Assembly: GCA_046350735.1 (NCBI GenBank)
Contig: JAXLZU010000001.1
Location: 493,767 to 557,766, forward strand
Reading direction: 5' to 3'
Source of the DNA: Candidatus Saccharimonadota bacterium
GTDB taxonomy: Bacteria; Patescibacteriota; Saccharimonadia; CAILAD01; BJGX01
Length of the DNA: 64,000 bases
The notes beneath the pieces were generated by a model. It was not told the DNA's origin. It searched no databases and saw only the letters and a list, made by a program, of their open reading frames with translations. How positions within the stretch are numbered: position 1 is the first letter of the stretch; each line of letters begins with the position of its first letter. Shown in pieces: positions 4,802 through 60,151 of this stretch. The translations under genes were made by a program, and so were the position numbers.

Positions 4802-5475
4802 ATTAGCTTTACCATTACCGAGGTGTTGTTATCGACTATTTTAGCTTTGTTGTCTTTTAGCATCTCGAGGGCTAACAGAAAACAGACAACTGTTTCGTAA
4901 TGCGAATCGCAGTAGGTGTGTAATTTGCTAATGTCTAATTGTTGGCTAGATTGCCACATAGATTGAAGTTTTTTGCGAAGGTAAATTGGGTTTTGACGTT
5001 TTAGCTTGAATGGTTTAGTGGTGGGCTGTGGCTGTGTTTGTTTTGCCGGATAAAATTCAGCAAAGCTAGAAAAATCTAAATTTGTAAACACTGTTGGGTT
5101 TATTGGTGTAGACGGCTTTTTGGCAAACTGAAATGATGGCCGAGCAGCCTCTACTACTTGCTTCATTGTATTTCTAATAGCAGAGAGTTCTTGTAACTGT
5201 TCTGTGAGGTCTTCGAGGGGTTCTTGAGTGTCCTGGTCTTTATTTGGTAGCAAGGCTCGACTCTTATACAAAATAAGTCTACTAGCTATATCCAAAAACC
5301 AATTAGCTTGTGCTGGGTCGAGCTCGATATTTTGTATACTCTCTAGATAATCATTAGTAACCGTGGCAAGCGATATATCGCAAATATCTAGCTTGTTACG
5401 CTCGATTAGCTGTAGAAGCAGGTCGAGTGGACCTGCAAAGTTATCGAGTTGAACAGTATATGTCGAACCCTCCAC
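4798..5475 (-). CDS. scpA: Segregation and condensation protein A
   Basis: N-terminal FAGPLDLLLQLIERNKLDICDISLATVTNDYL signature of ScpA. Confidence 0.75.
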   Translation of the reverse strand: MEGSTYTVQLDNFAGPLDLLLQLIERNKLDICDISLATVTNDYLESIQNIELDPAQANWFLDIASRLILYKSRALLPNKDQDTQEPLEDLTEQLQELSAIRNTMKQVVEAARPSFQFAKKPSTPINPTVFTNLDFSSFAEFYPAKQTQPQPTTKPFKLKRQNPIYLRKKLQSMWQSSQQLDISKLHTYCDSHYETVVCFLLALEMLKDNKAKIVDNNTSVMVKLI

Positions 5476-5484
5476 TATGTGCCC

Positions 5485-6801
5485 CTATGGTGCCAAGCGC
5501 TGCATATCGCGCGGGAATAAGGTAGCCTCTTTAACGTTTTCGAGACCGATAATTTTTTGCGTAAGTCGCTCTAGGCCCAGACCAAACCCACCGTGCGAAG
5601 GCATGCCATACTGGAAGGCTTGCAAGTAATGTTTAAAGCCTGGGTGTTTTGGGTCTCCACCGATTTCCTCTAGCTGAGTTAATAAGGTTTCATAATTGTT
5701 TTCTCGCATAGAAAGTGTAGTTATCTCTACACCCCTAAAAATTAAGTCTGCACGGTCGGCAACATGGCTGTTTTGGGCATTTTTACGGTGATAAAACTTC
5801 ATTTCTGATGCCGGAAATTCTGTTATATATACAGCTTCGCTACCCCATTTCTTTAGTGCATATTCACTAGCAAAACGTTCTTCTGCAGGGGTTGGGTCTT
5901 TTTCGTGGCGGGTATCTTCGTTGGTGGCTTTAAAGTATTGCTCGTGCAATTCACTTAAGGTGATTTCTGGAATTTCTTTTGTTAGTTTTACTGGTTTGGC
6001 CTGTAGTTTTTCTAGCTCGCCCTTATGTTCGCTCCAAACTTTTTCACACACAAAGTTAATCATGCCACCTAGAAAATCACAGACTTCTTTTAGCTCTGTA
6101 ATAAATCCCATCTCGCCATCTACACTTATGTACTCGCTCATATGTCGTGTGGTTGTGCTTGGCTCGGCACGATATACCGGACCAATCTCATATACTCTCT
6201 CATATACCCCTACCATCATCTGTTTGTAAAACTGTGGGCTTTGGGCCAATGTGGCGGTTTTACCAAAATAATCCATCTTAAATACTTCTGCGCCACCCTC
6301 GGTAGGTTCGGCTAATAACTTTGGAGTATGAATTTGTACAAAATCGTAGCTTTCAAAATATTCTCGAATATAACGTTCTATAGCGGCCTGAATTTTAAAA
6401 ATAAGCTGTTCGCTAGTGTTGCGCAGCCCGATAGTACGATTTTCGAATAATGTAGTATGGTGCTCTGGTTTGTGGCTAATAGGCTTGTCAATTTCTATTG
6501 GCATTACATCTTTTACTGTACTTAAGATTTCGAGCTGTGGGTCGTGAATTTCTACACCACCAGGTGCTCTGTCGTCGGCCAATACTTCTCCAGTTACGGT
6601 TAAGACAGTACCAAGCTGCAGGCCATCAAGCTTTTTTAGTTCCTTTTCGTCTTCAAGTAATATCTGAACCAATCCGGTTCTATCTCGTAGAACTAAAAAA
6701 TTTAATCCGCCCAGTAAACGACGCTTATACAGCCAGCCAGAAACACTAGCGGTTTTTCCGGCATGTTTTTTTAGATCAGCAACTAATACTCTGTTTTTCA
6801 T
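5485..6801 (-). CDS. aspS: Aspartate--tRNA ligase, short archaeal/eukaryal-type (possibly non-discriminating)
   Basis: N-terminal OB anticodon-binding fold (SVSGWLYKRRLLGGLNFLVLRD); class II motifs; C-terminal GGFGLGLERL; 438 aa, lacking the bacterial-type insertion. Confidence 0.75.
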   Translation of the reverse strand: MKNRVLVADLKKHAGKTASVSGWLYKRRLLGGLNFLVLRDRTGLVQILLEDEKELKKLDGLQLGTVLTVTGEVLADDRAPGGVEIHDPQLEILSTVKDVMPIEIDKPISHKPEHHTTLFENRTIGLRNTSEQLIFKIQAAIERYIREYFESYDFVQIHTPKLLAEPTEGGAEVFKMDYFGKTATLAQSPQFYKQMMVGVYERVYEIGPVYRAEPSTTTRHMSEYISVDGEMGFITELKEVCDFLGGMINFVCEKVWSEHKGELEKLQAKPVKLTKEIPEITLSELHEQYFKATNEDTRHEKDPTPAEERFASEYALKKWGSEAVYITEFPASEMKFYHRKNAQNSHVADRADLIFRGVEITTLSMRENNYETLLTQLEEIGGDPKHPGFKHYLQAFQYGMPSHGGFGLGLERLTQKIIGLENVKEATLFPRDMQRLAP

Positions 6802-18548: not shown

Positions 18549-18887
18549 CTAATCGCTCATCATTTCTTCTGGTGAAATTTCGTTCCAATATCCATCAGGC
18601 ATTTGTCGATAAAAAACAATTTTTTTGCTTGTTTCTTCGCTGTCGTATATATACTCTACATAGTCAGCCGGCCCGCGGTGGTGATAAATGGTTTTCTTAT
18701 CGAGAATAGCTGGGCTTTCGATATTGTCTATTCTGTACTTGATATTATCTTTCTCAAATTCTATTCGCTCAATAGCCCTCTTATACTTTGGGTTATCAGG
18801 TAACTGCTCTGTAAATTTGTCTCTAACATCAATAGTATACATATCGTCGATACGCATTGTTAACTCGTCCCAGTTTTTTTCGTTCAT
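18549..18887 (-). CDS. Hypothetical small acidic protein
   Basis: 112 aa ORF; ATGA start/stop overlap with the upstream zinc-ribbon membrane protein gene suggests co-transcription. Confidence 0.4.
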   Translation of the reverse strand: MNEKNWDELTMRIDDMYTIDVRDKFTEQLPDNPKYKRAIERIEFEKDNIKYRIDNIESPAILDKKTIYHHRGPADYVEYIYDSEETSKKIVFYRQMPDGYWNEISPEEMMSD

Positions 18888-20413
18888 AAGCTGGTAGCCA
18901 TGCGAATAAGTTGATCTTGGCTAAGGTTGGTATTATCACCTTCAATTCGATACCAGGTGCCATTATTAACCCAGCTAGCTTGATTACCATACACGTAAAT
19001 AGTTAGTCCGGCAGCTTGCAGTGAGAGATATTTATCAGACTTATTACTAACATAGTTTTCAGCTAAGGCTTGGCTATCCCAGTCAGTTTTACTCTCATTA
19101 ACAGTAGCTGAGGCTTTGCCGTCTGCAGACCCTATTTGATAAGAGATGGTACCAGGGCCAGAGCTGATATTATTTGAAACCTGCCAACCATTAGGTAGGT
19201 AGCCAGGCATACTTGCATTTATACCAGCTTTTGAGCTAGCGACTTTGAGGGCTAAGTTAGGATAATTAACTTGCCAAACATAGGCTCCAAGAAGTAATAG
19301 ACCAGCCATGGTAAGAGTTACTGTGGCAGCTTTGGCACTTTTTTTGCCAAGCGAAGATTTCTTCTTAGCAACAGGCATTGGCTCATCTGGCACTCCTGGT
19401 AAACCTGTAGATGGGTTCTCGGTGAGTGTATTTGACTGTGGCTCAATTACACCTGGTGTAGTTGTAGAGGCCGAAGCAGCAACTGTATTAATACTATCTG
19501 GGTTAAGTACAGGTTGTGTAAGAGGTTGAGCCACTGGTGCTTGAGCAGGTGGTGAAGGGGTTTGTGGTGATGCGGTAAATGTAGTTACTTGAGTGGGTGC
19601 AAGAGTTGGTGTAGCTACTGATCTAATTGTATCCATAGGCACAACTACTGGAGGTGTAGACGGCTTTGTAGAAAGCTCTTGTACTGCCGCTGGGCGTTCA
19701 TTGTCTGAATTTGCCAATAGATTGAACTGATCATCTGAGAATACATGCTCATCTTTACTATCGAGGGATGCAAGTTCGCTACTCTGTGTATGTGTGTCTG
19801 GCAGATTGTCTGGTGTGTTTGACGAAGACTGTGTCATCGAATCAACAGCTGGGTTGCTAGTTTGTGGTACTGCTACCGATGGAGTCTGAGGTACCAAAGT
19901 ATTTGCAGGATTATTTGCAACAGGGCGTAAATCGGTAATATTAGCTGAAGGAGTAAATTTATTAATCGAGGACGATACTGGTGCTGCAGTGGGTTCTGGT
20001 GTGGGAGTAGGAGGTGTGGCCGGTGGCGTGGTGGCAGCAGGAGTATCCATTACCCAAGGAGTTGTAGATTGGCTATTAGTTGATGGTGGAGTATTTGTAT
20101 CTGGTGATTTGGTGGTAGCAGTTGTAGGTTCGGCTGGTTTGCCAGAAAGGCTGGCTGTTAGACTACTTACAATGTCATCTCCATTTGTTGAGGCAGTGCT
20201 GGTAGGACTAGAGCTTGACACATCGGTACTGGGCGCCATGCCAATGCTTGGTTGAAGGTTGTTGCTCGAATGGCTAGGTGCTGCACCACCTACAACTCCT
20301 TCATTACCACTAGCAGAAGCTGCAGCAGTACCACAATTAGCACAAAACGTTTTGCCGGCTATGCTAATTTGATCACTAGAGCTACAGTTTTGACAATTAT
20401 CAGATAAATTCAT
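18884..20413 (-). CDS. Membrane protein with N-terminal cytoplasmic zinc-ribbon, long Ser/Thr/Pro-rich linker, single TM helix and C-terminal extracytoplasmic domain
   Basis: CxxC...CxxC (CQNCSS...CANCGT) in the first 30 aa; about 300 aa low-complexity linker; TM ATVTLTMAGLLLLGAYVW; about 140 aa C-terminal domain. Confidence 0.55.
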   Translation of the reverse strand: MNLSDNCQNCSSSDQISIAGKTFCANCGTAAASASGNEGVVGGAAPSHSSNNLQPSIGMAPSTDVSSSSPTSTASTNGDDIVSSLTASLSGKPAEPTTATTKSPDTNTPPSTNSQSTTPWVMDTPAATTPPATPPTPTPEPTAAPVSSSINKFTPSANITDLRPVANNPANTLVPQTPSVAVPQTSNPAVDSMTQSSSNTPDNLPDTHTQSSELASLDSKDEHVFSDDQFNLLANSDNERPAAVQELSTKPSTPPVVVPMDTIRSVATPTLAPTQVTTFTASPQTPSPPAQAPVAQPLTQPVLNPDSINTVAASASTTTPGVIEPQSNTLTENPSTGLPGVPDEPMPVAKKKSSLGKKSAKAATVTLTMAGLLLLGAYVWQVNYPNLALKVASSKAGINASMPGYLPNGWQVSNNISSGPGTISYQIGSADGKASATVNESKTDWDSQALAENYVSNKSDKYLSLQAAGLTIYVYGNQASWVNNGTWYRIEGDNTNLSQDQLIRMATSL

Positions 20414-23757: not shown

Positions 23758-24765
23758 CTATCTATTACTTATTACTGAGCGCATATAATCATCAAGGTTT
23801 TCGAGTGCAATACCTGTTCCTTTTGCAACACACAAGAGCGGCTCTTCGGCTACATAGCTAGGTACGCCGGTAACTTTTGTCATTAATTTGTCGATATTTC
23901 GCAGTAAGCTACCACCTCCGGTCATAATCATTCCGCGGTCAATTATATCCGAGGAAAGCTCTGGTGGTGTTTGTTCGAGTACTGCTTTTACTGCCAAAAT
24001 AATATCATCCAGTCTATCAGAAATTGCCGCTGTAATATCAGTAGAGTTAAGCTCGATTGTTTTTGGCAGACCAGCCACAACATCACGGCCACGAACCTTC
24101 ATTTTCATGGGCTTATCGAGTGGTAATGCTGAGCCAATTTCTTTTTTGATATCTTCAGCTGTCTGCGCGCCAACTACCAAACCATATTTTTTACGAATAA
24201 AGTCTGCAATAGCATTATCTATCTTGGCACCAGCTACTCGTACGCTATGTTCGGCGACTATTCCGCCCAAACTAATAATAGCTACCTCGGTAGTTCCCTC
24301 ACCTATATCTACAATTAAGTTACCAGCCGGTGCAGCAATTGGAACATTTGCCCCTATGGCAGCAGCGACGGGTGCGCGTATAATATATACTCTCCTGGCA
24401 CCGGCGCTCATTGCAGCATCAATTACTGCTCTTCGTTCGGTAGAAGTTATACCTGTCGGCACGCTAATCATTAACTCAGGTCTTGTAATACGGACTCGTC
24501 CGGCAATTTTGCTAATAAGATATTTTAATAAGGCCTGAGTGATACGATAATCAGCAATTACTCCATCTTTAAATGGACGACTAGCCGTAATAATATCTGG
24601 TGTACGACCAAGCATCTCTTTGGCTTCATTGCCAACGGCCACAATTCTATTATCATCTACACTTACAGCAACAACTGATGGCTCGTTTGCCACAATTCCT
24701 TTTTTGGGAAGATAGACTAGTGTATTGGCTGTTCCGAGATCGATTGCTAAACGTTTTTTTAACAT
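23758..24765 (-). CDS. mreB: MreB-family actin-like protein (second paralogue, Mbl-like)
   Basis: AIDLGTANTLVY phosphate-1 motif and DIGEGTTEVAIISLGG phosphate-2 motif; 335 aa. Confidence 0.85.
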   Translation of the reverse strand: MLKKRLAIDLGTANTLVYLPKKGIVANEPSVVAVSVDDNRIVAVGNEAKEMLGRTPDIITASRPFKDGVIADYRITQALLKYLISKIAGRVRITRPELMISVPTGITSTERRAVIDAAMSAGARRVYIIRAPVAAAIGANVPIAAPAGNLIVDIGEGTTEVAIISLGGIVAEHSVRVAGAKIDNAIADFIRKKYGLVVGAQTAEDIKKEIGSALPLDKPMKMKVRGRDVVAGLPKTIELNSTDITAAISDRLDDIILAVKAVLEQTPPELSSDIIDRGMIMTGGGSLLRNIDKLMTKVTGVPSYVAEEPLLCVAKGTGIALENLDDYMRSVISNR

Positions 24766-26228: not shown

Positions 26229-27392
26229 CTAACTGACTTCTGGTAAGTGGTTGGGCTGTGTTGTATTTTGTTGGGTTGGTGTAGTCTCGCCATTATTCGA
26301 GCTAGACCCACCAAAGAAGCGCGAAAAGAATCCAGCAATAGTGCTTTGTATTTGTGACAGAATAGAAGGTGAAGCACTAGGAAGCGTGCCAGACTGTGTT
26401 GCAGCAACAGCATTAGTGTTGGTAGTGGTGGTTTGTGGGCTTGTGGCAGCTTGCTGACTACTTGGTGTGCTTGGAGCGGGTTCAATTTGATCAGCGCTCA
26501 CCACAAAGCGTCGCCAACTAGTACCGGGTGGTGTACAAGTAATAAGTGTTGAAGTGGGGGTGTTGGTTTGGGTTAGAACGCTTAAATCTGTCGGTGCAAC
26601 AACTTTTGTATTTGTAACTCTGTACACGTACTTGTGTGATTGGTAATGTATTTCATATGTGTCGCCCGGCACTAGCCTTTCTAATAATACAAATACAAAT
26701 TTAAAGTTACCCGGCTCCCACCAGTCGTTACTAGAGTGACCAAAAAAAACTGCATTACCATTCTCTCCTGGGTAGGCAGTGCCAGCATAGTGTACCACTC
26801 CATTTTGGAGTGCTTTTAACATTTCTGGCTCTGAGAGCGTGTTAATAAATATTAGTGGTGCTCGTACACCAATTTTAGGGATAATTAATACATCTTCTGG
26901 ACCAACTACCTCTCCAGGTGCAGGCGTAGAACTTGTATTCTGTACAACAGGAGTTGATGTTTGAGTTTGTGTAGATGTAGTCTTGGGGGTTATAAGAAAA
27001 AGAATTTGACTATAGATTACCTGAAAATTAAAAATTATCAGAAAAACCACAAAACTTAGTATTGCAAACCGTACGGTTCCATAATGTTTATGTTGGCGTA
27101 TTTTCTTAAGTTTTTCGCGGGCTTTTCTCTTCTTTTCTGTCTCTGATCTATTGGGATGAACGTTGCTAACAGGTGGAGGTGTTGTTGCTGTAGTATGTTG
27201 CTCGGTAGATGTATTATTTATGTGCTCGGCTTGTGTACTTACAGAAGTTTGCGGATTCACAAATGGTTTTATTCCATGAAGTACCTGCGAGGGTTCTTTC
27301 GAGGACTCTTGAGGCGGAACGGGATATTCATCTGGTTGGGGTGAGTTGGGGTGTACCATTTCTTTTTTGTAGTACTTTCTATTATAATACAC
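26229..27392 (-). CDS. Sortase (class E/A-like transpeptidase) with long low-complexity N- and C-terminal extensions
   Basis: TM anchor; catalytic His (FFGHSS) and TLITC catalytic Cys motif; conserved Arg downstream. Confidence 0.7.
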   Translation of the reverse strand: MYYNRKYYKKEMVHPNSPQPDEYPVPPQESSKEPSQVLHGIKPFVNPQTSVSTQAEHINNTSTEQHTTATTPPPVSNVHPNRSETEKKRKAREKLKKIRQHKHYGTVRFAILSFVVFLIIFNFQVIYSQILFLITPKTTSTQTQTSTPVVQNTSSTPAPGEVVGPEDVLIIPKIGVRAPLIFINTLSEPEMLKALQNGVVHYAGTAYPGENGNAVFFGHSSNDWWEPGNFKFVFVLLERLVPGDTYEIHYQSHKYVYRVTNTKVVAPTDLSVLTQTNTPTSTLITCTPPGTSWRRFVVSADQIEPAPSTPSSQQAATSPQTTTTNTNAVAATQSGTLPSASPSILSQIQSTIAGFFSRFFGGSSSNNGETTPTQQNTTQPNHLPEVS

Positions 27393-27428: not shown

Positions 27429-27513
27429 GCCGCTGTGGTGGAACTGGTAGACACGCACGACTCAAAATCGTGTGTCGAAAGACATGTCGGTTCGAGTCCG
27501 ACCAGCGGCACCA
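27429..27513 (+). tRNA. tRNA-Leu (anticodon CAA), type II with long variable arm, CCA encoded
   Basis: Acceptor stem GCCGCTG/CAGCGGC; anticodon loop CTCAAAA; variable-arm hairpin GTC-GAAA-GAC; T-loop GGTTCGAGTCC; 3-prime ACCA. Confidence 0.85.
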
Positions 27514-39879: not shown

Positions 39880-41139
39880 TTATCGAGATTTGTTAACTTT
39901 GGTGGTAACTAAACCTTTTTTACTTTTACGATACGCACGGGTAAATCCGGCAAGTCCGGTCATACCAAGAGCAGCAGCCAAGCCAGACTCCATACCAGTT
40001 GCTGGCAAACTAGGTGAGCCAGGAGTTGGTGTAGGAGTTGGGGTTGGAGGAATTGGAGTTGGTGTAGGCGTTGGGGTTACTACATTGGCAGTATCACAAA
40101 CTGGGAATGGTTCTTCGTTAGAACGAACACATGCACTATTTGTAAATGTACCAGTTGCATCAGGCTTTACAGTTACCTGCATCAGCACGTAGCCATTTAC
40201 CTTTGCGGTGTAGTCGCCAACACTTTGGCCACCAGCAGTAAAGAGCGTATTGTCTGGCAATGCCATACCATTTGGGTTCTCGGTATTGTAGAGCTTAATC
40301 GTACCTGGGATAAGCTGCACTTGAGCAGGTAATTTATCGGTTAGGGCAAGATTGTGCTGTACAACGTTTGCTGAGTTGTTAAAGTCGATTTTGTAGTATA
40401 GTCTATCACCTGGTTTAGCTTCTACAGATTTTGCAAAAGCCTGACTAGGATGAGCAACTGTCTTAGTAATTGCAAGCGGAACAGCTTCTACTTTTACTTT
40501 AACAATTACATACTCGGCATACTCAAAACATCCTGGAATGTTACCATCAGCTTGGTTTTCACCAATTAATGCACCGGTAGTAACAATACTATCAGAGAGC
40601 TTTAAGTTAGCATTTTGGCGGGTAACGGCATGAGCCGAACCAGCAACATAGCTAAGATGGAATGGTGTACCATTAGCACTTTTAAACTCGGTGGTGTCAA
40701 ACACACTGCCTGGTTGTGCATTCGATGCACTAATCTGACTAACTGCATTCATAGCAGTACCAACTGTACTGGGTAGTTGGATTTTAACTGTCGTATTACG
40801 GGCTACACCCGGACCATCAAAGTTGGCACCGTTTAGGTTGGGGCCAGCGTTGTTGTGTACATATGTACGCAAGTAAATTTCTTGTCCAGGTTGTACATTT
40901 TGTACGTCTGTATAGGTAGGATTAGCACTTTGGGCGCTATCGAAGAATTCTGTTTCGTTACCATACCCTGGGGTATTGTAAAACGAGTTAAAGGTTACAT
41001 GATCAAAGCCTGGGGTATTTGGACCGTCCCATTTACGGGTTTCTCGGTTAGGATACCAACCAGCAATGGTCATAAGCGGCGCTGCAATGGCAACAAGGGT
41101 TGCAAGTGAGGCCAAACCTATCTTGGTTGCGAGTTTCAT
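39880..41139 (-). CDS. LPXTG-anchored cell-surface protein (sortase substrate)
   Basis: N-terminal signal peptide; beta-rich body; PT-repeat linker (PTPTPTPIPPTPTPTPTP); LPATG followed by a hydrophobic segment and basic tail RAYRKSKKG. Confidence 0.7.
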   Translation of the reverse strand: MKLATKIGLASLATLVAIAAPLMTIAGWYPNRETRKWDGPNTPGFDHVTFNSFYNTPGYGNETEFFDSAQSANPTYTDVQNVQPGQEIYLRTYVHNNAGPNLNGANFDGPGVARNTTVKIQLPSTVGTAMNAVSQISASNAQPGSVFDTTEFKSANGTPFHLSYVAGSAHAVTRQNANLKLSDSIVTTGALIGENQADGNIPGCFEYAEYVIVKVKVEAVPLAITKTVAHPSQAFAKSVEAKPGDRLYYKIDFNNSANVVQHNLALTDKLPAQVQLIPGTIKLYNTENPNGMALPDNTLFTAGGQSVGDYTAKVNGYVLMQVTVKPDATGTFTNSACVRSNEEPFPVCDTANVVTPTPTPTPIPPTPTPTPTPGSPSLPATGMESGLAAALGMTGLAGFTRAYRKSKKGLVTTKVNKSR

Positions 41140-41300
41140 AAAAAACTCCTTTCATTGGTTAAAAAATTGGCACTGTTTTGACAAACTCCAATTAATATTT
41201 CAAAGATCGTGCGTTCGCTATAAATAATATCATACATAAGCGCTTATGTCAATACTTTTTATGGTAGTTTATTATCGAGAGTATATCTGTTAAATTTTTC

Positions 41301-41338
41301 ACAAAAAGAAAAGCCCCCTACCGAATTTCGGTAGGGGG
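41301..41338 (-). terminator. Rho-independent terminator downstream of the 41357-42298 gene
   Basis: Perfect 10-bp stem ccccctaccg / cggtaggggg with loop aattt (41314-41338); on the minus strand followed by cttttctttttgt. Confidence 0.6.
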
Positions 41339-41356
41339 TATAAGGTTTTGTCACAC

Positions 41357-42298
41357 TCAGGCGGGTGCCGTCGGTGGTGAAGTAATGGGCACTGACACTG
41401 TCGGCTGCGGTTGAGGCAGTGGTGCCGGCGGCGGAAGAACCGTCGATGGCGGCGTAACAGTGACAGTCGGCTGCGTAGAATCCGGCGGGCGTGGCGTCGG
41501 CGGACCCACCCCAGGCTGACAGGGACGGGCCGGATCGGCACACTGCGCCGGTGTAGGCGGCACATACGGCTTACAGCCCTGCGGGACCGTACATGTCACG
41601 ATAGAAGTAGTGGTTGTAGACGGTAGTGGTGGCGGTGTCGTCGTCGGAACACAATCACTCTTACAGCCGGGCGTTGGAGTCGGTCCACCACTGGGTGGTG
41701 GGCCACCAGGTACCTCTGGAGGAGGCGGAAACTGTCCCACGGGCTGATAGCCGCAGTCGAGCTTGTAGTTCCACTCGCTCCCATCCGGGCACGAGAAGCG
41801 CAACACCTGGTAACTCGGTCGGTCAGGATCGGCTGGGTAGCTCGACGGAATCGGCTGAGTGCCACGCATATACATCGTCTGATACGGACCAGACATGTCC
41901 ACCACCGAAGCAGAACACTTCGCCTCTGCGGCTTCCATCATGCCGACGGCACCTGCCCAAGAGGCACGGTCGTTGACATAGTTGTTGGTCGCATCGAGCA
42001 TCGACTCGGTAGAGGCATATGCCCTCGACTGATATGCGGCGTGCTGCGCTACCAGAGCGGGGTCGCTACAACGACGGGTGTGCAACTCGGCCTTGGCAGC
42101 ATCCACCTCGGTGGGGGCAGCAGGACCGTTGTTGTCAACATCTACCTTATAGCGATAGTAATCCACCGTAGAAGCGCACTCACCAGCTGGCGGTCCACCG
42201 GGTGGCGGCTGCGCGTCCACTCGTGCCACAATGGGCACGATGAGGAGCAGTGCCACTACTGCCGCCAAACTAAAACCAAGCAAAAATCGCCTTCGCAT
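41357..42298 (-). CDS. Secreted Cys- and Pro-rich hypothetical protein (GC-rich gene)
   Basis: Real start ATG at 42298 gives MRRRFLLGFSLAAVVALLLIVPIVARVDAQ signal peptide. Mature protein has paired Cys and a PT/P-rich C-terminus. The ORF-track N-terminal 133 codons are an upstream read-through. Confidence 0.5.
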   Translation of the reverse strand: MRRRFLLGFSLAAVVALLLIVPIVARVDAQPPPGGPPAGECASTVDYYRYKVDVDNNGPAAPTEVDAAKAELHTRRCSDPALVAQHAAYQSRAYASTESMLDATNNYVNDRASWAGAVGMMEAAEAKCSASVVDMSGPYQTMYMRGTQPIPSSYPADPDRPSYQVLRFSCPDGSEWNYKLDCGYQPVGQFPPPPEVPGGPPPSGGPTPTPGCKSDCVPTTTPPPLPSTTTTSIVTCTVPQGCKPYVPPTPAQCADPARPCQPGVGPPTPRPPDSTQPTVTVTPPSTVLPPPAPLPQPQPTVSVPITSPPTAPA

Positions 42299-42388
42299 CT
42301 GATCTGTATTCAAGGTACATCCTTCCTTTTCGGGAACTTGGGAACAGGACACTTTCTCACATACCATATATGAGAAAGTCGCTATTAG

Positions 42389-42433
42389 CAAGAAAAAAAT
42401 CTCTGGTGGGGGTCTTTTGCAAGACCCCCACCA
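42389..42433 (-). terminator. Rho-independent terminator downstream of the 42454-43182 gene
   Basis: Perfect 13-bp stem tggtgggggtctt / aagacccccacca with loop ttgc (42404-42433); a T7 tract follows on the minus strand. Confidence 0.65.
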
Positions 42434-42453
42434 GGACAAAAAAGTGAGAAAAA

Positions 42454-43182
42454 TTACTGGGCAGCCGCTGCCGGTGCATTGCCAGCTTGGCCAGCGTTGG
42501 CTGGAGCTGGTGCCGGTGCCGGTGCCGGCGGAGCTGCAGGCAACTCGAGCGTCGGCGCAGGTGCCGGTGCCGGATTGGCAGCAGCATTGGCCGGCGGAGC
42601 CGCATCGGCGCGATTCTGGCCGCGGTTGACGACAAAACTCAGCACGAAGGCAAGAGCAAACATCAACACCACACCACAGGCAGTAGAAACAATCCACATT
42701 CGTGCCGGGTCGGCCGGGATATCCACAATCAACTTGTTCTGAGCATCAGCGAAGTGCTTGCCCAGACCGTACTGCTCGAACACCCAGAAGTACCAGAACG
42801 GAATCGAAACGAGACCAATCACAAACGAGACCAGCATCACCATCGCCCAGTCAACACGGTCGCCCATGCGCTCGAAGATGGCAATAAACCAGTTATCATG
42901 GGTGGCGATCTGCTGATCGTGACGATCAACATGGGTCGCAGTGGTCTCATGCGCCTGGCGGAGCATGTCCTGCTGCTGGCCCTGACGATCAACCAGACCA
43001 GTCAAATCACCCAAATGGGTCTCAACCACATCAACACGACCCTCAAGTGCGCCAATCTGTGCACCCTGAGCCTGAAAACGACGACCAACTGCCTGATTGT
43101 GCGCGTGCTGTGCCCGATCACGGGCCTCGACACGCTCAGCAATACGGCGCAAATTGGCTTGAATTCGCTCTGCCTCTGTCAT
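42454..43182 (-). CDS. Hypothetical membrane protein: N-terminal coiled-coil, two TM helices, Ala/Pro-rich C-terminal tail (GC-rich gene)
   Basis: ATG at 43182 with GGAGA SD; heptad N-terminus; TM helices MVMLVSFVIGLVSIPFWYFWVF and IVSTACGVVLMFALAFVLSFVV; tail PAPAPAPAPA. Confidence 0.5.
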   Translation of the reverse strand: MTEAERIQANLRRIAERVEARDRAQHAHNQAVGRRFQAQGAQIGALEGRVDVVETHLGDLTGLVDRQGQQQDMLRQAHETTATHVDRHDQQIATHDNWFIAIFERMGDRVDWAMVMLVSFVIGLVSIPFWYFWVFEQYGLGKHFADAQNKLIVDIPADPARMWIVSTACGVVLMFALAFVLSFVVNRGQNRADAAPPANAAANPAPAPAPTLELPAAPPAPAPAPAPANAGQAGNAPAAAAQ

Positions 43183-43275
43183 TCTATTTGTTCTCCTCTA
43201 TCGGGGACTAGAAGGTACCGCGTACGTGTCACAACCTAAGTTATGCCACGTAGTAAGACTTCTATAAGTAAAGCT

Positions 43276-43305
43276 GGCAGAGGTGGGTGTTACCCCACCC
43301 CTGCC
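43276..43305 (-). terminator. Probable terminator downstream of the 43319-44209 gene
   Basis: 12-bp stem ggcagaggtggg / cccacccctgcc (one mismatch) with loop tgttac; weak T-run on the minus strand. Confidence 0.45.
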
Positions 43306-43318
43306 GAAAAAAGAGATA

Positions 43319-44209
43319 CTAGCTATCGAGTAGCTCGACCAAGCTGCGACAACCCTTCACAAACCAATCATCATCAAGATCACTCAGAGGGTCAGCAGGG
43401 TCGACAGTGATGTACTCGAGGCCAGTCACCGGCGAGGAGTCATCAGTCTGCAGACTGTCATCGGTCGGGTCGGCCTTTGCGGTCGGCTTTGCATCGCCTT
43501 CACCCAACCCGTTGCCAGGCTCTTCGTAATCGAACGGCTTCTTGTCGTCTGGCTTAGAAACGCTTTGCAGCGCCTCAGCAACCTTCTTACGTGAAACCAT
43601 AGTCTTGGCATTACTGCCCTTAGCTGCATCAGCAAGAGCCAGTACATCAACTACGGTACACTTCAGAAAGGCTGCCAACTCACCAGCAGCAACCAAATCG
43701 GCATCGACATCCGGCTTCGGTTCGACGTACTCGCGCGGAGTGATATCGTTCCAGGCCAACTTACCCTGCAAGAAGCTTCTCACCTGCGCATTCAAATTAG
43801 CATAATCAACTCGCTTGCCATCTCGCTTGAGCTCGCAACGGCGATACACCAAGCCACTCAAGACACGAACGACAGCAATAATGGGTAGATCCTGCTGATT
43901 GCTCAGCGTAATAACCAGCATTTGTGTTTCAGCATCTGACGCCGCAATGGCATCGAGAGCTGGTGAGATCTGACGGTCAAACTTGCGCAAGTCAGTAGGG
44001 TCAGCACTAGCAATCGCAGTCAGCACCAAGCTAATTGAGTCAGATACCGCACTGGCTTCAGAATCATCATCAGCAGCAGCTTCATCGCCCTGACTATCTG
44101 CATCATCTGTGTGTTCGTCAGAAGCATCCGGCCTTGACTCATTCAGAACTTCATCAAAAGCCTTGCTGAGATCATCATCATTCAAACCAAGATCATCATC
44201 AGCCATCGT
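43319..44209 (-). CDS. Hypothetical highly acidic protein (GC-rich gene)
   Basis: Probable start ATG (MADDDLGL) at 44209 preceded by aagaagagagagg SD; the track start is an upstream TTG. Asp/Glu-rich termini, central alpha-helical core. Confidence 0.45.
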   Translation of the reverse strand, partial: TMADDDLGLNDDDLSKAFDEVLNESRPDASDEHTDDADSQGDEAAADDDSEASAVSDSISLVLTAIASADPTDLRKFDRQISPALDAIAASDAETQMLVITLSNQQDLPIIAVVRVLSGLVYRRCELKRDGKRVDYANLNAQVRSFLQGKLAWNDITPREYVEPKPDVDADLVAAGELAAFLKCTVVDVLALADAAKGSNAKTMVSRKKVAEALQSVSKPDDKKPFDYEEPGNGLGEGDAKPTAKADPTDDSLQTDDSSPVTGLEYITVDPADPLSDLDDDWFVKGCRSLVELLDS

Positions 44210-44267
44210 TGCCTCTCTCTTCTTTCGGTTCAAGGAACCTGGTTACCGGAATTGATAACCAAGTAAT

Positions 44268-44317
44268 TAAATCGAAAAAAAACTTGGTGTTGGGGCACCC
44301 TCGCACCCCAACACCAA
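44268..44317 (-). terminator. Rho-independent terminator downstream of the 44329-45618 gene
   Basis: Perfect 12-bp stem ttggtgttgggg / ccccaacaccaa (44284-44317); a T8 tract follows on the minus strand. Confidence 0.6.
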
Positions 44318-44328
44318 ACACAATTACG

Positions 44329-45618
44329 TTACAAAAGAGCTTTGGCCTTCTTAATAATCTCAGCCTTACGGGCACGTGCCTCTTCGGGACTAAGACCATC
44401 AATCTCGCTACGCATAAAGGCCTTAACAGAGCGAAGTAGACGCTCGCGCGCTTCGCTACCACTCTCGTCGGCAACTAGCGCCGGGGCGGACGGGGTCTGC
44501 ACGGGCCGCCGAGCAAGCAAGTTCTTCTCTTTGGCAGCATCTCGCTCAGCCCACTCGCGTTGCTTTTCAGCAAGAAGTGCACGAAGTTGATTGGCATCAG
44601 CACCCTTAATCAGTTCGCTCCTTAGCCAACCGAGAAGAGTGCTATCTACTGAAAGATCAAGTAGCCGAGCAATGTCTTCCATGAGCGCTTCATTGTCCGT
44701 GCGTGTCATGAGGATGTAATTGCGAGGAGTATCACTGTCCTCACTACGCGGAACCGATTCGCGAATAAGTTGACGAAGAGCTTCAGTATCACCAGGGTTA
44801 GTGCCGGCGGCCAACTCTTGATCGGCAACCCGCCTGTCAAACTGACCCTGGTAACGCGAACCCTCACTGCCCTTCCAGGGATTGTTATCCTCACCTAGAA
44901 TGGAATCATAACTCAGCAGCCAAACACCATTACTGCGGGCTTGGCGCAAGCGAACCGTCTCGGCCCGGGGCACCAGGACATGTACATCGCCAATCTCAAC
45001 TTCTTCTACTTTACTAGCAAACTCACCAGCAAGATGAGAAAGATAGGCAGCAAGCTGTGTCAGATAATCTTCTTTGGGCTCATCGCCAGACTTAGTAGTT
45101 TCTTCACTATCAGTCTGCACTGGGTTTGCACCGGCCTTAATTGCAGCAATTTCCTCATCTGTGTACGTCAGCCAGTACACCTGGCTATACACACACATTA
45201 GTGCCTGATCAATAGTTTCGCTTGCAGCTAGACATTCCATAATCTTATCGGCGGCCTGACCATTGTTAGGTCGGACTACCTTATAATTATCATCAAGCTT
45301 CATATAGCGATGGTGAACCTTGGCGGTTTGTACCATCTCAAGAACAAGAGCCCGAACTTCATTACTGTCAACACCATTTTCGAGTAGACCCTTACACGCA
45401 GTAAGAGTTTCATCGAGCATAGATTTTGCAACTTCAAAGTGGGCAGTCAGGCTGGCTTCATAAAGAGATTTCTTGTCATCTTTATCAATGTCAGGATCTT
45501 CGCTCAACGGTTCTTCTCCTCGTTCGGCAGCGAGTGCTTTCGCAATTCGCTTCTGGTTCTGCCTGACAATTTCGGACACTTCTTCACCTCTCGCTTGTCC
45601 AAGTGGAGCCCTAAGCAC
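44329..45618 (-). CDS. Hypothetical protein, 429 aa (moderately GC-rich gene)
   Basis: Long ORF with GTG start in the track; a later in-frame start is possible; charged, alpha-helical; no family recognised. Confidence 0.45.
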   Translation of the reverse strand: MLRAPLGQARGEEVSEIVRQNQKRIAKALAAERGEEPLSEDPDIDKDDKKSLYEASLTAHFEVAKSMLDETLTACKGLLENGVDSNEVRALVLEMVQTAKVHHRYMKLDDNYKVVRPNNGQAADKIMECLAASETIDQALMCVYSQVYWLTYTDEEIAAIKAGANPVQTDSEETTKSGDEPKEDYLTQLAAYLSHLAGEFASKVEEVEIGDVHVLVPRAETVRLRQARSNGVWLLSYDSILGEDNNPWKGSEGSRYQGQFDRRVADQELAAGTNPGDTEALRQLIRESVPRSEDSDTPRNYILMTRTDNEALMEDIARLLDLSVDSTLLGWLRSELIKGADANQLRALLAEKQREWAERDAAKEKNLLARRPVQTPSAPALVADESGSEARERLLRSVKAFMRSEIDGLSPEEARARKAEIIKKAKALL

Positions 45619-45801
45619 ATTACTACGCTCAGAGCTCCACTCAGAAATTACAAGAAGTAAAAAAAACTATGCATCTATCACTAGATCTTTTGTACTAAAG
45701 TAATTGTAATGTAAACATTTCTACAAAGCTTTTAACAAAACCTCATCAGGTATGATGGTACTACAAAAACTTAAAAAAGTCAATAGTTTTTAACAGGAAT
45801 A

Positions 45802-46146
45802 TTAATCTGTTGGAGTACTGATGTTTTGTATTGCGTCAGCTTCAGCCAACACAGCCTTTCGATTATTCTCGAGCTCGTTAATAGTATCGAGCTCTATCTG
45901 GGCATTCCACTGCTCATAGTTATCTACTTTAGACCTAATAAACTCTTCTACTTGGTCGTCTTGCCCGGAGTCAATAAGCGAGTTGAGCTTATCAATATCT
46001 TCGTCAGAAAGCATTTCGGTAATCTTTTGCATAACACGAGTTGCAACAGTATCGGCTAGTTGTTGTAGCTGTACTTCTTGCTCGTCGGGAGGTAAGTTTT
46101 CGATACCAAGTTTTTGTATAATTTCTTCTTTAGTAATCATATTCAT
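45802..46146 (-). CDS. Hypothetical small acidic helical protein
   Basis: 114 aa; AAAGG SD overlapping the stop of the upstream 548-aa gene, suggesting an operon. Confidence 0.4.
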   Translation of the reverse strand: MNMITKEEIIQKLGIENLPPDEQEVQLQQLADTVATRVMQKITEMLSDEDIDKLNSLIDSGQDDQVEEFIRSKVDNYEQWNAQIELDTINELENNRKAVLAEADAIQNISTPTD

Positions 46147-46152
46147 CCTTTG

Positions 46153-47799
46153 TTAAGATCCAAACCCTTCTGGGGCAGGAGGTAATTTAGAAAGTGCTTC
46201 GGCTATCTTGGCATCTGTCCAGCCTTGCGCCTTCATAGATTCTGTCCAAGACATAAATTTCTGGAATGTATTTGGATGATGAACCATTTCGGCAAACTCT
46301 CGAGAGTTCAACCAGTCTGGTGGTTTGGGTGCAGTTGGCGGCGCTTCTGGTGTGGCATGCAAAGCATTACCAATTATCGGTGCGGCGGCCAAACCTGCTC
46401 CTGCTACAGCTGCGCCTCTACTCCATCGACGTTTGCGGCGAGTTTGTCGTTGAGCAGCAGTAGTGTAGTCTTCAATACTATCAATATCCGCCTTATTAAA
46501 TTGCCTATCAGCCAACCATTCGCCGCCTGCCTTGGTAGCAGTGTAACCACCAAAGCCTCTCAGCGCAGCACGCCCTGCAACTGCGGCAGATACTAGCGGA
46601 ACGTTACCCGTAGCTGCCCCTACAAAACCAAGCCCTGTTAGTGCTACACCGGCTGCAATTCGAGTTTTCTTATGATTACGTAGCCATTCACCCACTCTTG
46701 CAAGCCTAGGGTGTCGTCGCTCTCTCTCGGCAATCATCTCAAAATCAACTCTAGCACGTACTTCCATAAGCTTTTCGTTAACCATAGCGTTGAGACCAGC
46801 CCGAATTTGTGCTTCTAGCTGTTCGTTTTGAGAGTTCTGATTTTCTAATCGACGAATCAGATCTCCAACCATTCTTACTTGATCATCAAAATCGGCCGGA
46901 CGAGCGTCGTCTGGTAGGGCCTCTAGATCTCTTAAATTCTGATGAGCATCGTCTAGGTCGGCGCGAATTGCTTGGGTTTGCTCGTAAACTGCTCTATTTT
47001 GCTCTGTAATAAGTCTTGCAAGAGCAGCCGACCACTCACCAAATGCCTCATTAAGCTCTTGGGCTGAATGCTCCATTTCATTAGTAGCCGTCTTGCCAGA
47101 AAACATTCGTTCACTTTCTACTCTTCGGCGAGCAAAGTCTGTAACAATACCTTCTAATCGAGCAGCTTGTTCTCGCAATGCTTCTTGTGCACCCAATATA
47201 GCCTGGGCTTCTAATTCGCCTCTATTAGGTTCTCTTGGTGCTGGTGGCTCAACATCACCGACCTGGTTACCATTATAGAATTCTTCTTCGTGTGCTGGAG
47301 CGGTATCTTGTGTCATACCTGCTTGGCGCATTCTTGCACCAAATTGTTCCCAGGTTCTTTCGGTCTGAGATGGTGCACCTGGGCGATTATAAAATTCATC
47401 TTCGTCAGCAGGGCCGTTATCGTTATTCATGCCCGCCTCACGCATTTTTTTGCCTAATTCAGCATATGGATCGAGCCGGGTATCGGCTCTACCTGCTTGC
47501 TCTTCTCGAAATTTTGCCATACCCTCCGCATATCTGCTTGCACCAGAGCTATAATGTGGTCTCACTTGGTCGTTATTTCTATCAACCTCACCTGGTGTAG
47601 GTGCTTTTGGTTTTTTCGTAATCGAATCTAATCTATCGCGTACCTCGACAAGAGATTTTGTTAGAACTCCATTTTTTCTTTCTAAACTAGCAATCTTTTG
47701 TTGGTCTTTAGCCCTGTCAGCCTCTAGCTTAGCTAATTTTTTCTTTAGATCGGCTGGTGTTTCAAATTCTGTAGTGCCGCCTGGATCTTTTTCTGACAT
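46153..47799 (-). CDS. Hypothetical protein: N-terminal coiled-coil, Gly/Ala-zipper membrane segments near the C-terminus
   Basis: ATG at 47799 with AGAGGG SD; KLAKLEADRAKDQQKIASLERK coiled-coil; IAAGVALTGLGFVGAATG and GAAVAGAGLAAAPIIG hydrophobic Gly-zipper segments. Confidence 0.5.
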   Translation of the reverse strand: MSEKDPGGTTEFETPADLKKKLAKLEADRAKDQQKIASLERKNGVLTKSLVEVRDRLDSITKKPKAPTPGEVDRNNDQVRPHYSSGASRYAEGMAKFREEQAGRADTRLDPYAELGKKMREAGMNNDNGPADEDEFYNRPGAPSQTERTWEQFGARMRQAGMTQDTAPAHEEEFYNGNQVGDVEPPAPREPNRGELEAQAILGAQEALREQAARLEGIVTDFARRRVESERMFSGKTATNEMEHSAQELNEAFGEWSAALARLITEQNRAVYEQTQAIRADLDDAHQNLRDLEALPDDARPADFDDQVRMVGDLIRRLENQNSQNEQLEAQIRAGLNAMVNEKLMEVRARVDFEMIAERERRHPRLARVGEWLRNHKKTRIAAGVALTGLGFVGAATGNVPLVSAAVAGRAALRGFGGYTATKAGGEWLADRQFNKADIDSIEDYTTAAQRQTRRKRRWSRGAAVAGAGLAAAPIIGNALHATPEAPPTAPKPPDWLNSREFAEMVHHPNTFQKFMSWTESMKAQGWTDAKIAEALSKLPPAPEGFGS

Positions 47800-47961
47800 A
47801 CTGTTACCCTCTTACTAATTAAATATACTTATGTTTAATTGTACCAAGTTATTGCAAGACCGGTCAATAAAGCTTAAAGATTTTCCTGTATAACTTAAAC
47901 CCTCTACGCCTCTCCACTAACAGTAATAGTTTTTAAATATAGGGCACGCATCTATGCATTT

Positions 47962-48034
47962 TGTACAAAAAAAGAAGCCCCGCCAAAACGAGTTAACCAC
48001 ATTTTGGTGGAAGCTTCTTGTCTTTGCGGGGCTA
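47962..48034 (-). terminator. Structured terminator (nested hairpins) downstream of the 48048-48482 gene
   Basis: Outer GC stem agccccgc / gcggggct enclosing inner hairpin ccaaaa...ttttgg; T-rich tract (ttcttttttt) on the minus strand. Confidence 0.45.
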
Positions 48035-48047
48035 AAATGATTTGTTA

Positions 48048-48482
48048 TTAGAGGTACAGTGGTTTGCTATTGAGAAAAACGCCCGTTACGCTACCGACAA
48101 ACTCCATATTCTTTAGCTGTGCATTATACTTACTGGCAGGAATAGAACGTGCGCCCAATACTGCCAAACAAATGCTCTCGCACCTCTCACTCATTGGGCA
48201 ATCTACCTCATAACATGACTCAGCAAAACGGGCAGCGCCCATTCGTTCCTCTTCGATACAATCCGGACAATCGTAGTAACCAAGAATGAAAGCATCGAGG
48301 ATACCCGCATTAGCACGGGCTATGCATTCAGCTTCTAGTTCTGTACCGGGTACTACTTCGTACATATGTTCGCCAGAAATACACTGTGCAAGATAGGTTT
48401 CTGGACTCACGCTCTCTTCTCCTTGACTTTGAGTCGGCATCAAAACTAAAAATATAATAGCATAAATACTACTAAATTGCAA
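48048..48482 (-). CDS. Small secreted Cys-rich protein, hypothetical
   Basis: Signal peptide MQFSSIYAIIFLVLMPTQSQG; 9 Cys in about 120 mature residues (CxDC, CxxxC patterns). Confidence 0.45.
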   Translation of the reverse strand: MQFSSIYAIIFLVLMPTQSQGEESVSPETYLAQCISGEHMYEVVPGTELEAECIARANAGILDAFILGYYDCPDCIEEERMGAARFAESCYEVDCPMSERCESICLAVLGARSIPASKYNAQLKNMEFVGSVTGVFLNSKPLYL

Positions 48483-48505
48483 TATTATAGATTGTTACTA
48501 AGTGA

Positions 48506-59098: not shown

Positions 59099-60151
59099 TT
59101 AATGTGGTACTTTTTCGTACTGCGTACTTACCAACACATCTTTTAGACTATCTAGATCTTCGAGTACCATACCCGTACCGCGCACCACAGCAGTTAGTGG
59201 ATCGTCAGCAATATGCACTGGCATTTTGGTCTGGGCAGCCAAGAGTACATCTAGTCCACGTAATAATGCACCCCCACCAGCAAGATAAATTCCTTTGTCC
59301 ATAATATCTGCTAGTAACTCTGGTGGTGTTTCTTCGATAGTGTGTTTTACAGCATCTACAATAGCTCGCACAGACCGAGACAATGCCTTTCTTGTTTGAT
59401 CAGAATTGATAGTCATTTCTTTGGGTAACCCGGTTATCATATCACGCCCTCTAATAGGGGCCTCGAGCATCTTACTAAGCTTGGCAGCCGAGCCAATATT
59501 TATTTTTATGGTTTCGGCAGTACGCTCGCCTATTTGCAAGCTAAATTCTTCTTTTGCATAAGCAATAACATCATCGGTAAGTTCGTCCCCAGCAATTCTT
59601 ACCGAACGAGATGAGACAATTCCACCTAAGGAAATCACCGCTACTTCTGAAGTACCGCCACCAATATCTACAATCATACTGCCTGCAGCATCATGTACGG
59701 GCAAGCCTGTACCCACAGCTGCTGCCATAGGCTCTTCTATTAAAAAGGCCTGGCGAGCACCGGCATTCATAGCGGCTTCTTCTACGGCACGCTTTTCTAC
59801 CTCGGTAACACCAGAAGGAATACCTACCACCACGCGCGGACGCGGAAAGAGTACAAAACTTTCTTTGTGCACCTTCTCGATAAAATACTTTAACATCTGC
59901 TCGGTTATCTCAAAGTCAGATACCACACCATCTACCAATGGACGTGTAGCCACAATATTAGCCGGAGTTTTACCAACCATCCGCTTGGCCTCGTCGCCAA
60001 TGGCTAAAATCTGCTTATTTTTGGTGTTAATTGCTACCACTGAGGGCTCGTTAATAACGATGCCTTTACCACGCACGTACACTAAAGTATTGGCCGTACC
60101 AAGGTCAATACCAATATCATGACTAAAATTACCCAGAAGCTGTTGTATCAT
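59099..60151 (-). CDS. mreB: Rod shape-determining protein MreB
   Basis: IGIDLGTANTLVYVRGKGIV and DIGGGTSEVAVISLGG actin-fold motifs; heads the mreBCD-mrdA operon. Confidence 0.9.
   Translation of the reverse strand: MIQQLLGNFSHDIGIDLGTANTLVYVRGKGIVINEPSVVAINTKNKQILAIGDEAKRMVGKTPANIVATRPLVDGVVSDFEITEQMLKYFIEKVHKESFVLFPRPRVVVGIPSGVTEVEKRAVEEAAMNAGARQAFLIEEPMAAAVGTGLPVHDAAGSMIVDIGGGTSEVAVISLGGIVSSRSVRIAGDELTDDVIAYAKEEFSLQIGERTAETIKINIGSAAKLSKMLEAPIRGRDMITGLPKEMTINSDQTRKALSRSVRAIVDAVKHTIEETPPELLADIMDKGIYLAGGGALLRGLDVLLAAQTKMPVHIADDPLTAVVRGTGMVLEDLDSLKDVLVSTQYEKVPH

Follow-up and report, generated by a model that had tools for sequence, protein, structure and literature searches.

Do eight neighbouring genes, nearly all of them outside known families, form one surface or host-interaction module, or is something else going on at this site? 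The question is raised by a locus at 39880–48482 in a 64,000-nucleotide (nt) stretch of contig JAXLZU010000001.1 (assembly GCA_046350735.1) of a Candidatus Saccharimonadota bacterium. The whole stretch is called the window here; all coordinates refer to it, and features lie on the minus strand unless stated otherwise. An earlier note, made from the sequence alone, had read the genes as a contiguous block of novel surface proteins. Comparison with relatives shows that the locus is vertically inherited, restricted to one clade (groundwater and soil Saccharimonadia) and composite. It consists of three strata: a pair encoding p548 and a DUF5663 protein, a core of four genes (p429, p304, p242 and pPro), and the gene of an LPATG surface protein. 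The names p429, p304, p548 and p242 keep the amino acid (aa) lengths of the earlier note, and pPro is the proline-rich gene. The reading favoured here, at a probability of about 40%, is that the locus encodes a clade-specific assembly spanning the cell envelope, with variable parts that are kept diverse by a biotic partner.

Strata, selection and allele exchange

The gene order is secA–FKBP–(small open reading frame (ORF) and/or murD-like gene)–p548–DUF5663–p429–p304–p242–pPro–LPATG–prfB (opposite strand)–ftsE–ftsX–CHAP–S41. It is the same in every contig that carries any member (L003, L004, L005, L010, L012, L015, L018 and L020–L026, where the labels L003–L026 stand for contigs from relatives carrying the locus), and it holds even in L010, whose prfB and FKBP share only 69% and 62% identity with the window. 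The comparative genomics that had been proposed as a check on co-occurrence gives a clear answer: order is strictly conserved, there is no shuffling among the recovered relatives, and no member matches a housekeeping family. All recovered relatives fall in one narrow Saccharimonadia lineage, the GTDB order CAILAD01, and a single GTDB species representative was matched among 185,579. The nearest representative is the metagenome-assembled genome (MAG) nzgw507 from New Zealand groundwater (p_Patescibacteria; c_Saccharimonadia; o_CAILAD01; g_JAHFOQ01; PMC12455944, supplement).

The strata differ in how fast they evolve. With near-identical strains excluded, amino acid identity to relatives is 100% for ftsE and 93% for both secA and ftsX. 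In the first stratum it is 70–75% for p548 (46153..47799) and 79–90% for the DUF5663 protein (45802..46140, 12 nt downstream of p548), and this pair, at 70–90% among relatives, has normal codon usage. In the core it is 70–81% for p242, 73–76% for pPro, 51–59% for p304 and 42–63% for p429. The ratio of nonsynonymous to synonymous substitution rates (dN/dS) is 0.09–0.42 in the four core genes and 0.00–0.06 in most housekeeping genes, with FKBP reaching 0.19, and the core genes change at 3–10 times the rate of the flanks. The core is thus under purifying but relaxed selection, and because dN/dS is well below 1 these ORFs are real, fast-evolving genes. The LPATG gene (39880..41139) has normal codon usage and evolves as slowly as housekeeping genes, at 94–98% identity under the same exclusion and 94–100% over relatives. 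It also has its own promoter, TTGACA-17-TATTAT with an upstream TG (41224..41252), which has 11 of 12 consensus matches and is kept in L010. Since it combines a conserved promoter of its own with slow evolution, the LPATG gene is a separate unit. The idea that the block is one unit therefore does not hold, as it splits into three strata and several transcription units.

Strains with flanks that are 97–99% identical allow a comparison at the population level. Nucleotide identity between them is 100, 96 or 90.7% in p429, 95.7, 87 or 83.5% in p304, 90.9 or 97% in p242 and 90–98.6% in p548, and about 99% in the LPATG gene. Between the window and L024, the synonymous divergence (dS) is 0 in p429 and pPro, 0.32 in p242, and 0.07–0.12 in FKBP and ftsX. 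A sliding comparison of the window with L012 gives tracts of 67–90% identity only inside the cluster, in a background of 96–100%. In the case of p304, the gene itself is a mosaic with at least two allele classes, and its cluster at 90% identity is a singleton. Allele combinations differ gene by gene between near-identical strains, and homologous recombination moves whole alleles as well as parts of them from strain to strain. In the spacers these strains are 95–100% identical, so the recombination junctions may lie there. No silent donor copies of the variable genes were found within the window. A diversity-generating retroelement was considered and rejected: there is no pair of template and variable repeats at 39–49.5 kb, the window lacks paralogous DNA, none of its scanned ORFs has a reverse-transcriptase domain, and the differences between strains show no excess of A↔G or A-specific changes.

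One hybrid protein deserves mention next to these alleles. P0015 (318 aa; L019, 331-1287; a 1.4-kb Logan contig, ERR15009265) joins the p429 N-domain (hhalign probability 99.4%) to the central segment of p304 ('ELAAxLKxTVVDVL…MVS', 97%). It may be a genuine variant, produced by deletion or fusion, or else an artefact of chimeric assembly.

Gene models, leaders and codon usage of the core

All eight minus-strand ORFs described earlier are present, but the starts of p429, p304 and pPro had been placed wrongly. The most likely start of p429 (44329..45579) is the GTG at 45579, giving 416 aa and not 429, because it follows the ribosome-binding site (RBS) GAGAGGTG, homologues begin with MSE or MSD, and the NCBI call is also 416 aa. 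The p304 gene (43319..44206) starts at the ATG at 44206 and encodes 295 aa, not 304. The gene model for pPro is 41357..42313, with a TTG start and 318 aa, in place of a 446-aa ORF; the TTG lies 7 nt past AAGGAAGG, and the N-terminal NTDQ is kept in L018, which has no ATG there. This gene is missing from the NCBI annotation of the MAG, in which U0516_03030 (LPATG) and U0516_03035 (p242, 42454..43182) are consecutive locus tags within a run for the cluster of U0516_03030–03060. Despite the missing annotation, pPro has a dN/dS of 0.12–0.16 in relatives. The shared direction of the genes, pointed out in the earlier note, is uninformative, because almost every gene between 32.8 and 63.7 kb is on the minus strand.

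Each core gene is set between conserved RNA elements. Upstream of p429, a consensus scan finds a near-invariant promoter-like block, TATTGACT-N17-TACCAT (45755..45785), which is kept in seven lineages despite saturated synonymous sites. It is followed by a conserved leader block (45700–45754) and, directly upstream of the RBS, by a 22-bp hairpin (45598..45646) in which RNAalifold finds compensatory changes in 10 of 39 pairs. Every core gene has its own terminator, a GC-rich hairpin with a T-run just 3' of the gene: at 44282..44319 after p429 (an intrinsic-terminator hairpin with compensatory pairs), at 43276..43305 after p304, at 42403..42434 after p242 (14 bp) and at 41314..41338 after pPro. 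In the three downstream spacers this is followed by a second conserved hairpin (44237..44264 for p304, 43223..43252 for p242 and 42351..42380 for pPro) and then by a GTACCTT-type motif ahead of the start codon. Compensatory changes occur in 5/39, 5/36 and 11/50 pairs of these other three spacers. The four core genes may be one attenuated or processed transcript.

The motif itself, of the type GTACCTT(GAA)/CCTTGAAC, is repeated in the leaders of p304 (44222–44236, conserved as CCTTGAACCGAAAG), p242 (43208–43219, GGTACCTTCTAG) and pPro (42309–42319). Its TTG probably serves as the start codon of pPro, and the p304 and p242 copies are paired, in the RNAalifold consensus, with sequence beside the upstream terminator. 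The p429 leader block also contains a stretch resembling a hammerhead core (CCUGAUGAGG…GAAA). A hammerhead ribozyme is not detectable at this place (CUGAUGAG), as no Rfam family matched even at an expectation value (E) ≤ 1; the Rfam scan returned nothing credible.

The most striking property of the core was overlooked in the earlier note. Across about 41.3–45.1 kb, the GC content rises from about 0.40 to 0.51–0.64, and GC at third codon positions (GC3) is 0.43–0.59 in p429, p304, p242 and pPro versus 0.28–0.37 in 29 other genes tested. The value for p548 is 0.31, and p548, DUF5663 and the LPATG gene are all near the background in composition. Third positions of the core hold A, G, C and T at.132,.296,.219 and.353, against.305,.161,.167 and.367 in the background; in p242, A falls to 0.09 and G reaches 0.34. 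This is a shift from A-ending to G-ending codons with T-ending codons unchanged, and it is not a matter of amino acid composition alone. Within the core ATA and TTA do not occur and AGA occurs once, AAA makes up 16% of the lysine codons against 61% in the background, CAA 19% against 63% of the glutamine codons, and CCG 51% against 11% of the proline codons. The dialect begins about 60 codons into p429 and ends at the stop codon of pPro, with sharp boundaries, and the spacers inside the core are nearer to the background (A.25, GC.42–.47, GC-rich hairpins included).

All lineages, L010 and L018 included, share this dialect, and synonymous sites of housekeeping genes are saturated between these lineages. 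It is therefore a maintained equilibrium and not foreign DNA on its way to amelioration. Differences between close strains have no A↔G excess, and C↔T changes outnumber A↔G changes in p242 and pPro, which fits a constraint against A at third positions. Two mutational explanations were rejected. Hypermutation specific to A does not agree with a substitution spectrum that is either symmetric or skewed towards C↔T changes, and plain GC-biased gene conversion does not agree with T at third positions not being depleted or with a change that is strand-asymmetric. The dialect might instead be due to selection at the level of translation or mRNA, for example through dependence on C34 tRNAs or through avoiding A-rich mRNA, rather than to foreign origin. 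A stronger version of this idea is that the core is a translationally insulated regulon, whose expression depends on C34 tRNAs or survives anticodon nucleases or A-specific mRNA interferases. What suggests it is that the core is nearly without A-ending codons dependent on U34 tRNAs and that each cistron is flanked by conserved RNA hairpins. We consider this version very unlikely to be right; if it were, it would amount to a codon-level switch over a recombination-shuffled recognition apparatus, facing a partner, host or phage, in an ultra-small epibiont.

It is worth noting that a 250-aa antisense ORF (42487-43239, plus strand) is stop-free over all of p242 in the window, L012, L015, L003, L004 and L005, and closed in L010 and L018. 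Its translation is rich in Cys and Arg and junk-like. A real antisense gene was rejected, because the frame is open as a by-product of the TTA, CTA and TCA codons missing from the sense strand and because it is not open in L010 and L018.

The proteins and what they might do

By hydropathy, a clear hydrophobic signal at the N-terminus is confined to pPro and the LPATG protein. In pPro, a signal peptide or anchor is followed by a globular domain with Cys residues, about 170 aa long, and by a Pro/Thr-rich tail whose C-terminus is conserved. The two transmembrane (TM) helices described for p242 are seen by hydropathy at residues 114–132 and 167–185, between an N-terminal coiled coil and an Ala/Pro-rich tail. 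The DUF5663 protein (112 aa, isoelectric point (pI) 4.1), p429 and p304 are acidic (pI 4.1–4.9), lack a TM-type hydrophobic segment and are predicted to be cytoplasmic; p429 has a helical N-domain and an alpha/beta middle domain, and p304, the most variable gene, was rightly called poly-acidic at a net charge of −34. In p548 the coiled coil is borne out, whereas the supposed Gly-zipper membrane segments come down to weakly hydrophobic Gly/Ala-rich stretches in a largely helical protein. Its last 50 residues hardly vary across the four closest lineages, and it has only 8 homologue clusters in 5.8 billion proteins. The AlphaFold2 model (predicted local distance difference test, pLDDT, 54.9) has confident helices at 193–360 only and is too poor for a fold search. 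In one near-identical MAG (L020, 3339-5031; GCA_964570715.1) no p548 is called, and a 66-aa antisense ORF is all that is found there. The gene is intact, at 548 aa, in the sister contig L022; the L020 case is an assembly frameshift error or a pseudogene.

The LPXTG surface protein recognised earlier is confirmed in detail. In its 419 aa, a hydrophobic segment at residues 7–25 after MKLATK is an N-terminal signal by hydropathy, not by a dedicated predictor. A DUF11-type repeat (TIGR01451, E = 1.3e-7; PF01345 weak) was found, and LPATG at residue 378 (39994–40008) is followed by the hydrophobic stretch GMESGLAAALGMTGLAGF and the basic tail TRAYRKSKKG…. The sortase that had been noticed some 13 kb off is also there, outside the cluster at 26229..27392 (PF04203, E = 3.1e-22) and 12.5 kb away, and is a candidate processing enzyme. 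With its signal, its LPATG motif, hydrophobic stretch and basic tail, and a sortase in the window, the protein belongs among the sortase substrates. The DUF5663 match (PF18908) has E = 2.3e-5 and 25.3 bits against a gathering cut-off of 23.7 bits, covers profile positions 1–72 of 84 and is precomputed in all orthologues, and NCBI names the protein 'DUF5663 domain-containing protein'. These two are the only members with an established family. Pfam, NCBIfam, PHROGs and PADLOC scans of all eight proteins gave nothing beyond DUF5663 and DUF11, in agreement with the earlier finding of no enzyme, ATPase or integrase, and scans of the most divergent orthologues added nothing. PDB sequence searches with p429, p304, pPro, LPATG, p548, p242 and DUF5663 were empty. 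Eleven p304 relatives scanned at E ≤ 10 had no family match, and an excisionase/MerR-like helix-turn-helix seen by eye in p304 (ELAAFLKCTVVDVLALA…KTMVS) was not supported by that scan. Because the C-terminus of p304 has an invariant YxxxD, type VII secretion was considered as well; neither the cluster nor the scanned ORFs of the window include an EssC/EccC FtsK-like ATPase or a WXG100/LXG helical hairpin. The literature on DUF5663, Saccharimonadia codon usage and hypervariable loci gave nothing relevant.

How much of a surface island is left? The LPATG protein and pPro are probably exported and p242 probably sits in the membrane, but four products (DUF5663, p429, p304 and the greater part of p548) are predicted to be cytoplasmic and acidic. 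The products would form or serve an assembly spanning the envelope, with DUF5663, p429 and p304 as acidic cytoplasmic adaptors or scaffolds, p548 and p242 as membrane-associated coiled-coil components, and pPro as an exported Pro-rich component. A host cell or a phage may keep the variable parts diverse through frequency-dependent pressure. Several points weigh against this reading. The epibiotic lifestyle of the order CAILAD01 is an assumption. The most variable proteins, p429 and p304, are predicted to be cytoplasmic, which is not what an arms race over surface antigens predicts; no gene has a gene-wide dN/dS > 1, and fast evolution is common to disordered acidic and coiled-coil proteins of many functions. 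The membrane association of p548 is weak (Kyte–Doolittle hydropathy 1.5, low-confidence model). In three of the four core spacers no promoter of the sigma-70 type was recognised, so that the transcription-unit structure is read from the hairpins, and the translational account of the dialect draws on 64 kb with one tRNA gene (27429).

The neighbourhood points in another direction. Directly downstream of the locus are prfB, ftsE, ftsX, a CHAP protein with a PcsB coiled coil and a CtpB-like S41 peptidase, and directly upstream are FKBP and secA; mreB, mreC and PBP2 lie at 55.8–60.2 kb, and the window also holds, farther off, GreA, a second mreB, RseP, UppS, a Wzy-like ligase, glycosyltransferases and a PEGA protein. 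This is a housekeeping neighbourhood with a strong flavour of cell wall and morphogenesis, and it supports a reading not related to a host about as well. The locus could encode a lineage-specific scaffold for division or morphogenesis, with a function like that of DivIVA, EzrA or SepF, working with FtsEX–PcsB, the MurD paralogue found in relatives and MreBCD–PBP2; its fast evolution would then reflect low complexity. The fixed position in all lineages, the purifying selection and the prevalence of cytoplasmic or coiled-coil membrane products would all suit such a scaffold. We nevertheless regard it as doubtful, though possible. The products have no similarity to known divisome or cytoskeletal families, essential division proteins are not usually kept as divergent alleles that are shuffled among near-identical strains, the codon dialect is left unexplained, and synteny in small genomes is weak evidence of function.

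Some features of this neighbourhood can be recorded alongside. The slot between FKBP and p548 varies: it holds a murD-like Mur ligase paralogue in L003 (3479-4777), L015 (3175-4479) and an ERZ contig, and in the window (47800-48505) only the small Cys-rich ORF (48048..48482), with no murD remnant. A murD pseudogene at 47.8–48.5 kb was rejected, as no similarity was found. The small ORF encodes 120–144 aa depending on the start (120 aa at NCBI) and keeps all 8 Cys at 97% identity in L012 and 71% in L015; it is absent in L003 and L005, where there is a murD-like gene or nothing. It had been called secreted, which is not supported, as its short hydrophobic N-terminus lacks a basic n-region and gives no clear signal peptide. 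In L012, with flanks 98–99% identical to the window, an extra 452-aa gene without a Pfam match (4548-5906) sits between the hibernation-factor gene and secA and is absent in the window. Two MreB paralogues (23758-24765 and 59099-60151) occur within 64 kb of a genome of about 0.8 Mb; one adjoins mreC and PBP2, and the other adjoins the Wzy-like ligase, glycosyltransferases, PEGA-domain protein and sortase. A 509-aa ORF at 18884-20413 (GC at second codon positions 0.55, GC3 0.28, weak C-terminal DUF4367 match) is probably a low-complexity envelope protein.

The highest allelic diversity and the recombination fall on cytoplasmic proteins, a point in favour of a conflict inside the cell. In an intracellular system of defence, exclusion or toxin and immunity, p429 and p304 would be specificity components that diversify against the counter-measures of phages or competitors, with p242 and pPro as its membrane and exported parts. 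The insulated cistrons and rare codons resemble those of tightly controlled genes, and the hybrid P0015 would be a case of modular domain exchange. This is unlikely all the same. No defence, toxin, nuclease, ATPase or protease domain was matched in PADLOC, Pfam, NCBIfam or PHROGs, with PADLOC giving only coiled-coil noise to LmuB and ZorA (E = 4e-4 to 6e-3) and no defence system, and no enzymatic effector is recognisable. Defence islands are also usually patchy, whereas this locus is universal at a fixed site.

The raised GC and GC3, a codon usage like that of mid-GC bacteria and the Ala/Pro-rich tails could also mark an island acquired by horizontal gene transfer, derived from phage or plasmid DNA or from a host bacterium or other donor of higher GC, and either un-ameliorated or imported again and again. 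As a recent event this is largely refuted, and overall it is highly improbable. In every lineage, even L010, the locus sits at one and the same site, with dS saturated, and simple amelioration should have erased the signal, which all of them carry; un-ameliorated transfer is therefore rejected as the source of the dialect. A change that runs only from A to G, is strand-asymmetric and is confined to coding sequence also speaks against it, and there is no integrase, adjacent tRNA gene (the sole one is at 27429), flanking repeat or att-like site. Homologues outside the clade were not found. Run exhaustively over 1.84 billion cluster representatives, a HMMER profile of p429 found just six proteins, each a member of the family or a fragment; IMG/VR scans with p429, p242 and p548, tblastn against phages (p242, p304, pPro) and plasmids (pPro) and a BFVD fold search returned nothing of the kind, and genome and metagenome scans gave only contigs already known. 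A word-indexed search with the globular domain of pPro (152 aa) gave no match although its own 11-member cluster is in the collection, which makes that null a failure of sensitivity and not absence; word-indexed nulls for Pro-rich or low-complexity proteins are not readable as absence. That the genes are chance open frames in stop-poor, GC-rich DNA, as the many overlapping ORFs on both strands at 41.3–43.3 kb, the antisense frame across p242 and the missing annotation of pPro might suggest, is scarcely credible given dN/dS well below 1 in the annotated frames, protein-level conservation that reaches distant lineages, an RBS, leader and terminator correctly placed for each gene, and an antisense frame explained by the absent codons.

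Comparison with known systems

Saccharimonadia and other bacteria of the candidate phyla radiation (CPR) are thought to live attached to hosts, and to our knowledge almost nothing is known about the genes that set their partner specificity. A locus at a fixed site with alleles shuffled gene by gene is a concrete candidate for a function in specificity or conflict. The practical reach is limited, as this is a rare uncultured clade with about ten populations in public data and no functional handles. The dialect has an importance of its own: a strand-specific, coding-only shift from A to G at third positions is explained neither by amelioration of foreign DNA nor by strand-symmetric GC-biased gene conversion, and if it is due to selection on decoding or mRNA survival, it would be a rare case of gene-set-specific codon selection in a minimal genome.

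Known systems resemble parts of the locus. Sortase-anchored LPXTG proteins with DUF11 or B_ant repeats share the signal peptide, DUF11-type repeat, LPATG motif, hydrophobic stretch and basic tail, and the likeness is limited to the LPATG gene, which promoter, codon usage and rate set apart from the rest of the cluster. As for the codons, the bldA/TTA regulon of Streptomyces is likewise a small gene set marked by codon choice, and the core here is rich in the rarest (G-ending) codons of the genome. However, bldA concerns one rare codon and one tRNA, and here there is a global shift from A to G at third positions over about 1,270 codons.

Replacement-type envelope islands, such as those for O-antigen, S-layer and pilin, in which phages drive frequency-dependent selection, share the fixed position, the conserved flanks for homologous replacement and the divergent alleles among near-identical strains. 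They are usually AT-rich, and this locus is GC-rich; in addition, gene content and order are constant here and only alleles change, the most variable products are predicted to be cytoplasmic, and the junctions appear to fall in structured intergenic spacers. The cytadherence loci of Mycoplasma pneumoniae and M. genitalium (the P1 and MgPa operons and the HMW proteins of the terminal organelle) are another analogue. They too are lineage-specific loci with raised local GC in the reduced low-GC genome of a surface-attached bacterium, they combine proteins of the membrane and surface with cytoplasmic ones of acidic or Pro-rich and of coiled-coil type, and they vary by homologous recombination. There is no similarity in sequence or fold, and a role in attachment is only conjectured for the locus described here. 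Silent donors like RepMP and MgPar are absent from the 64-kb window, alleles here being exchanged between strains, and the rise in GC is specifically one from A to G at third positions. Unlike both analogues, then, the locus has no donor cassettes detected in the window, and it joins a constant gene content with hypervariable members that are cytoplasmic and with a codon dialect in which G replaces A at third positions.

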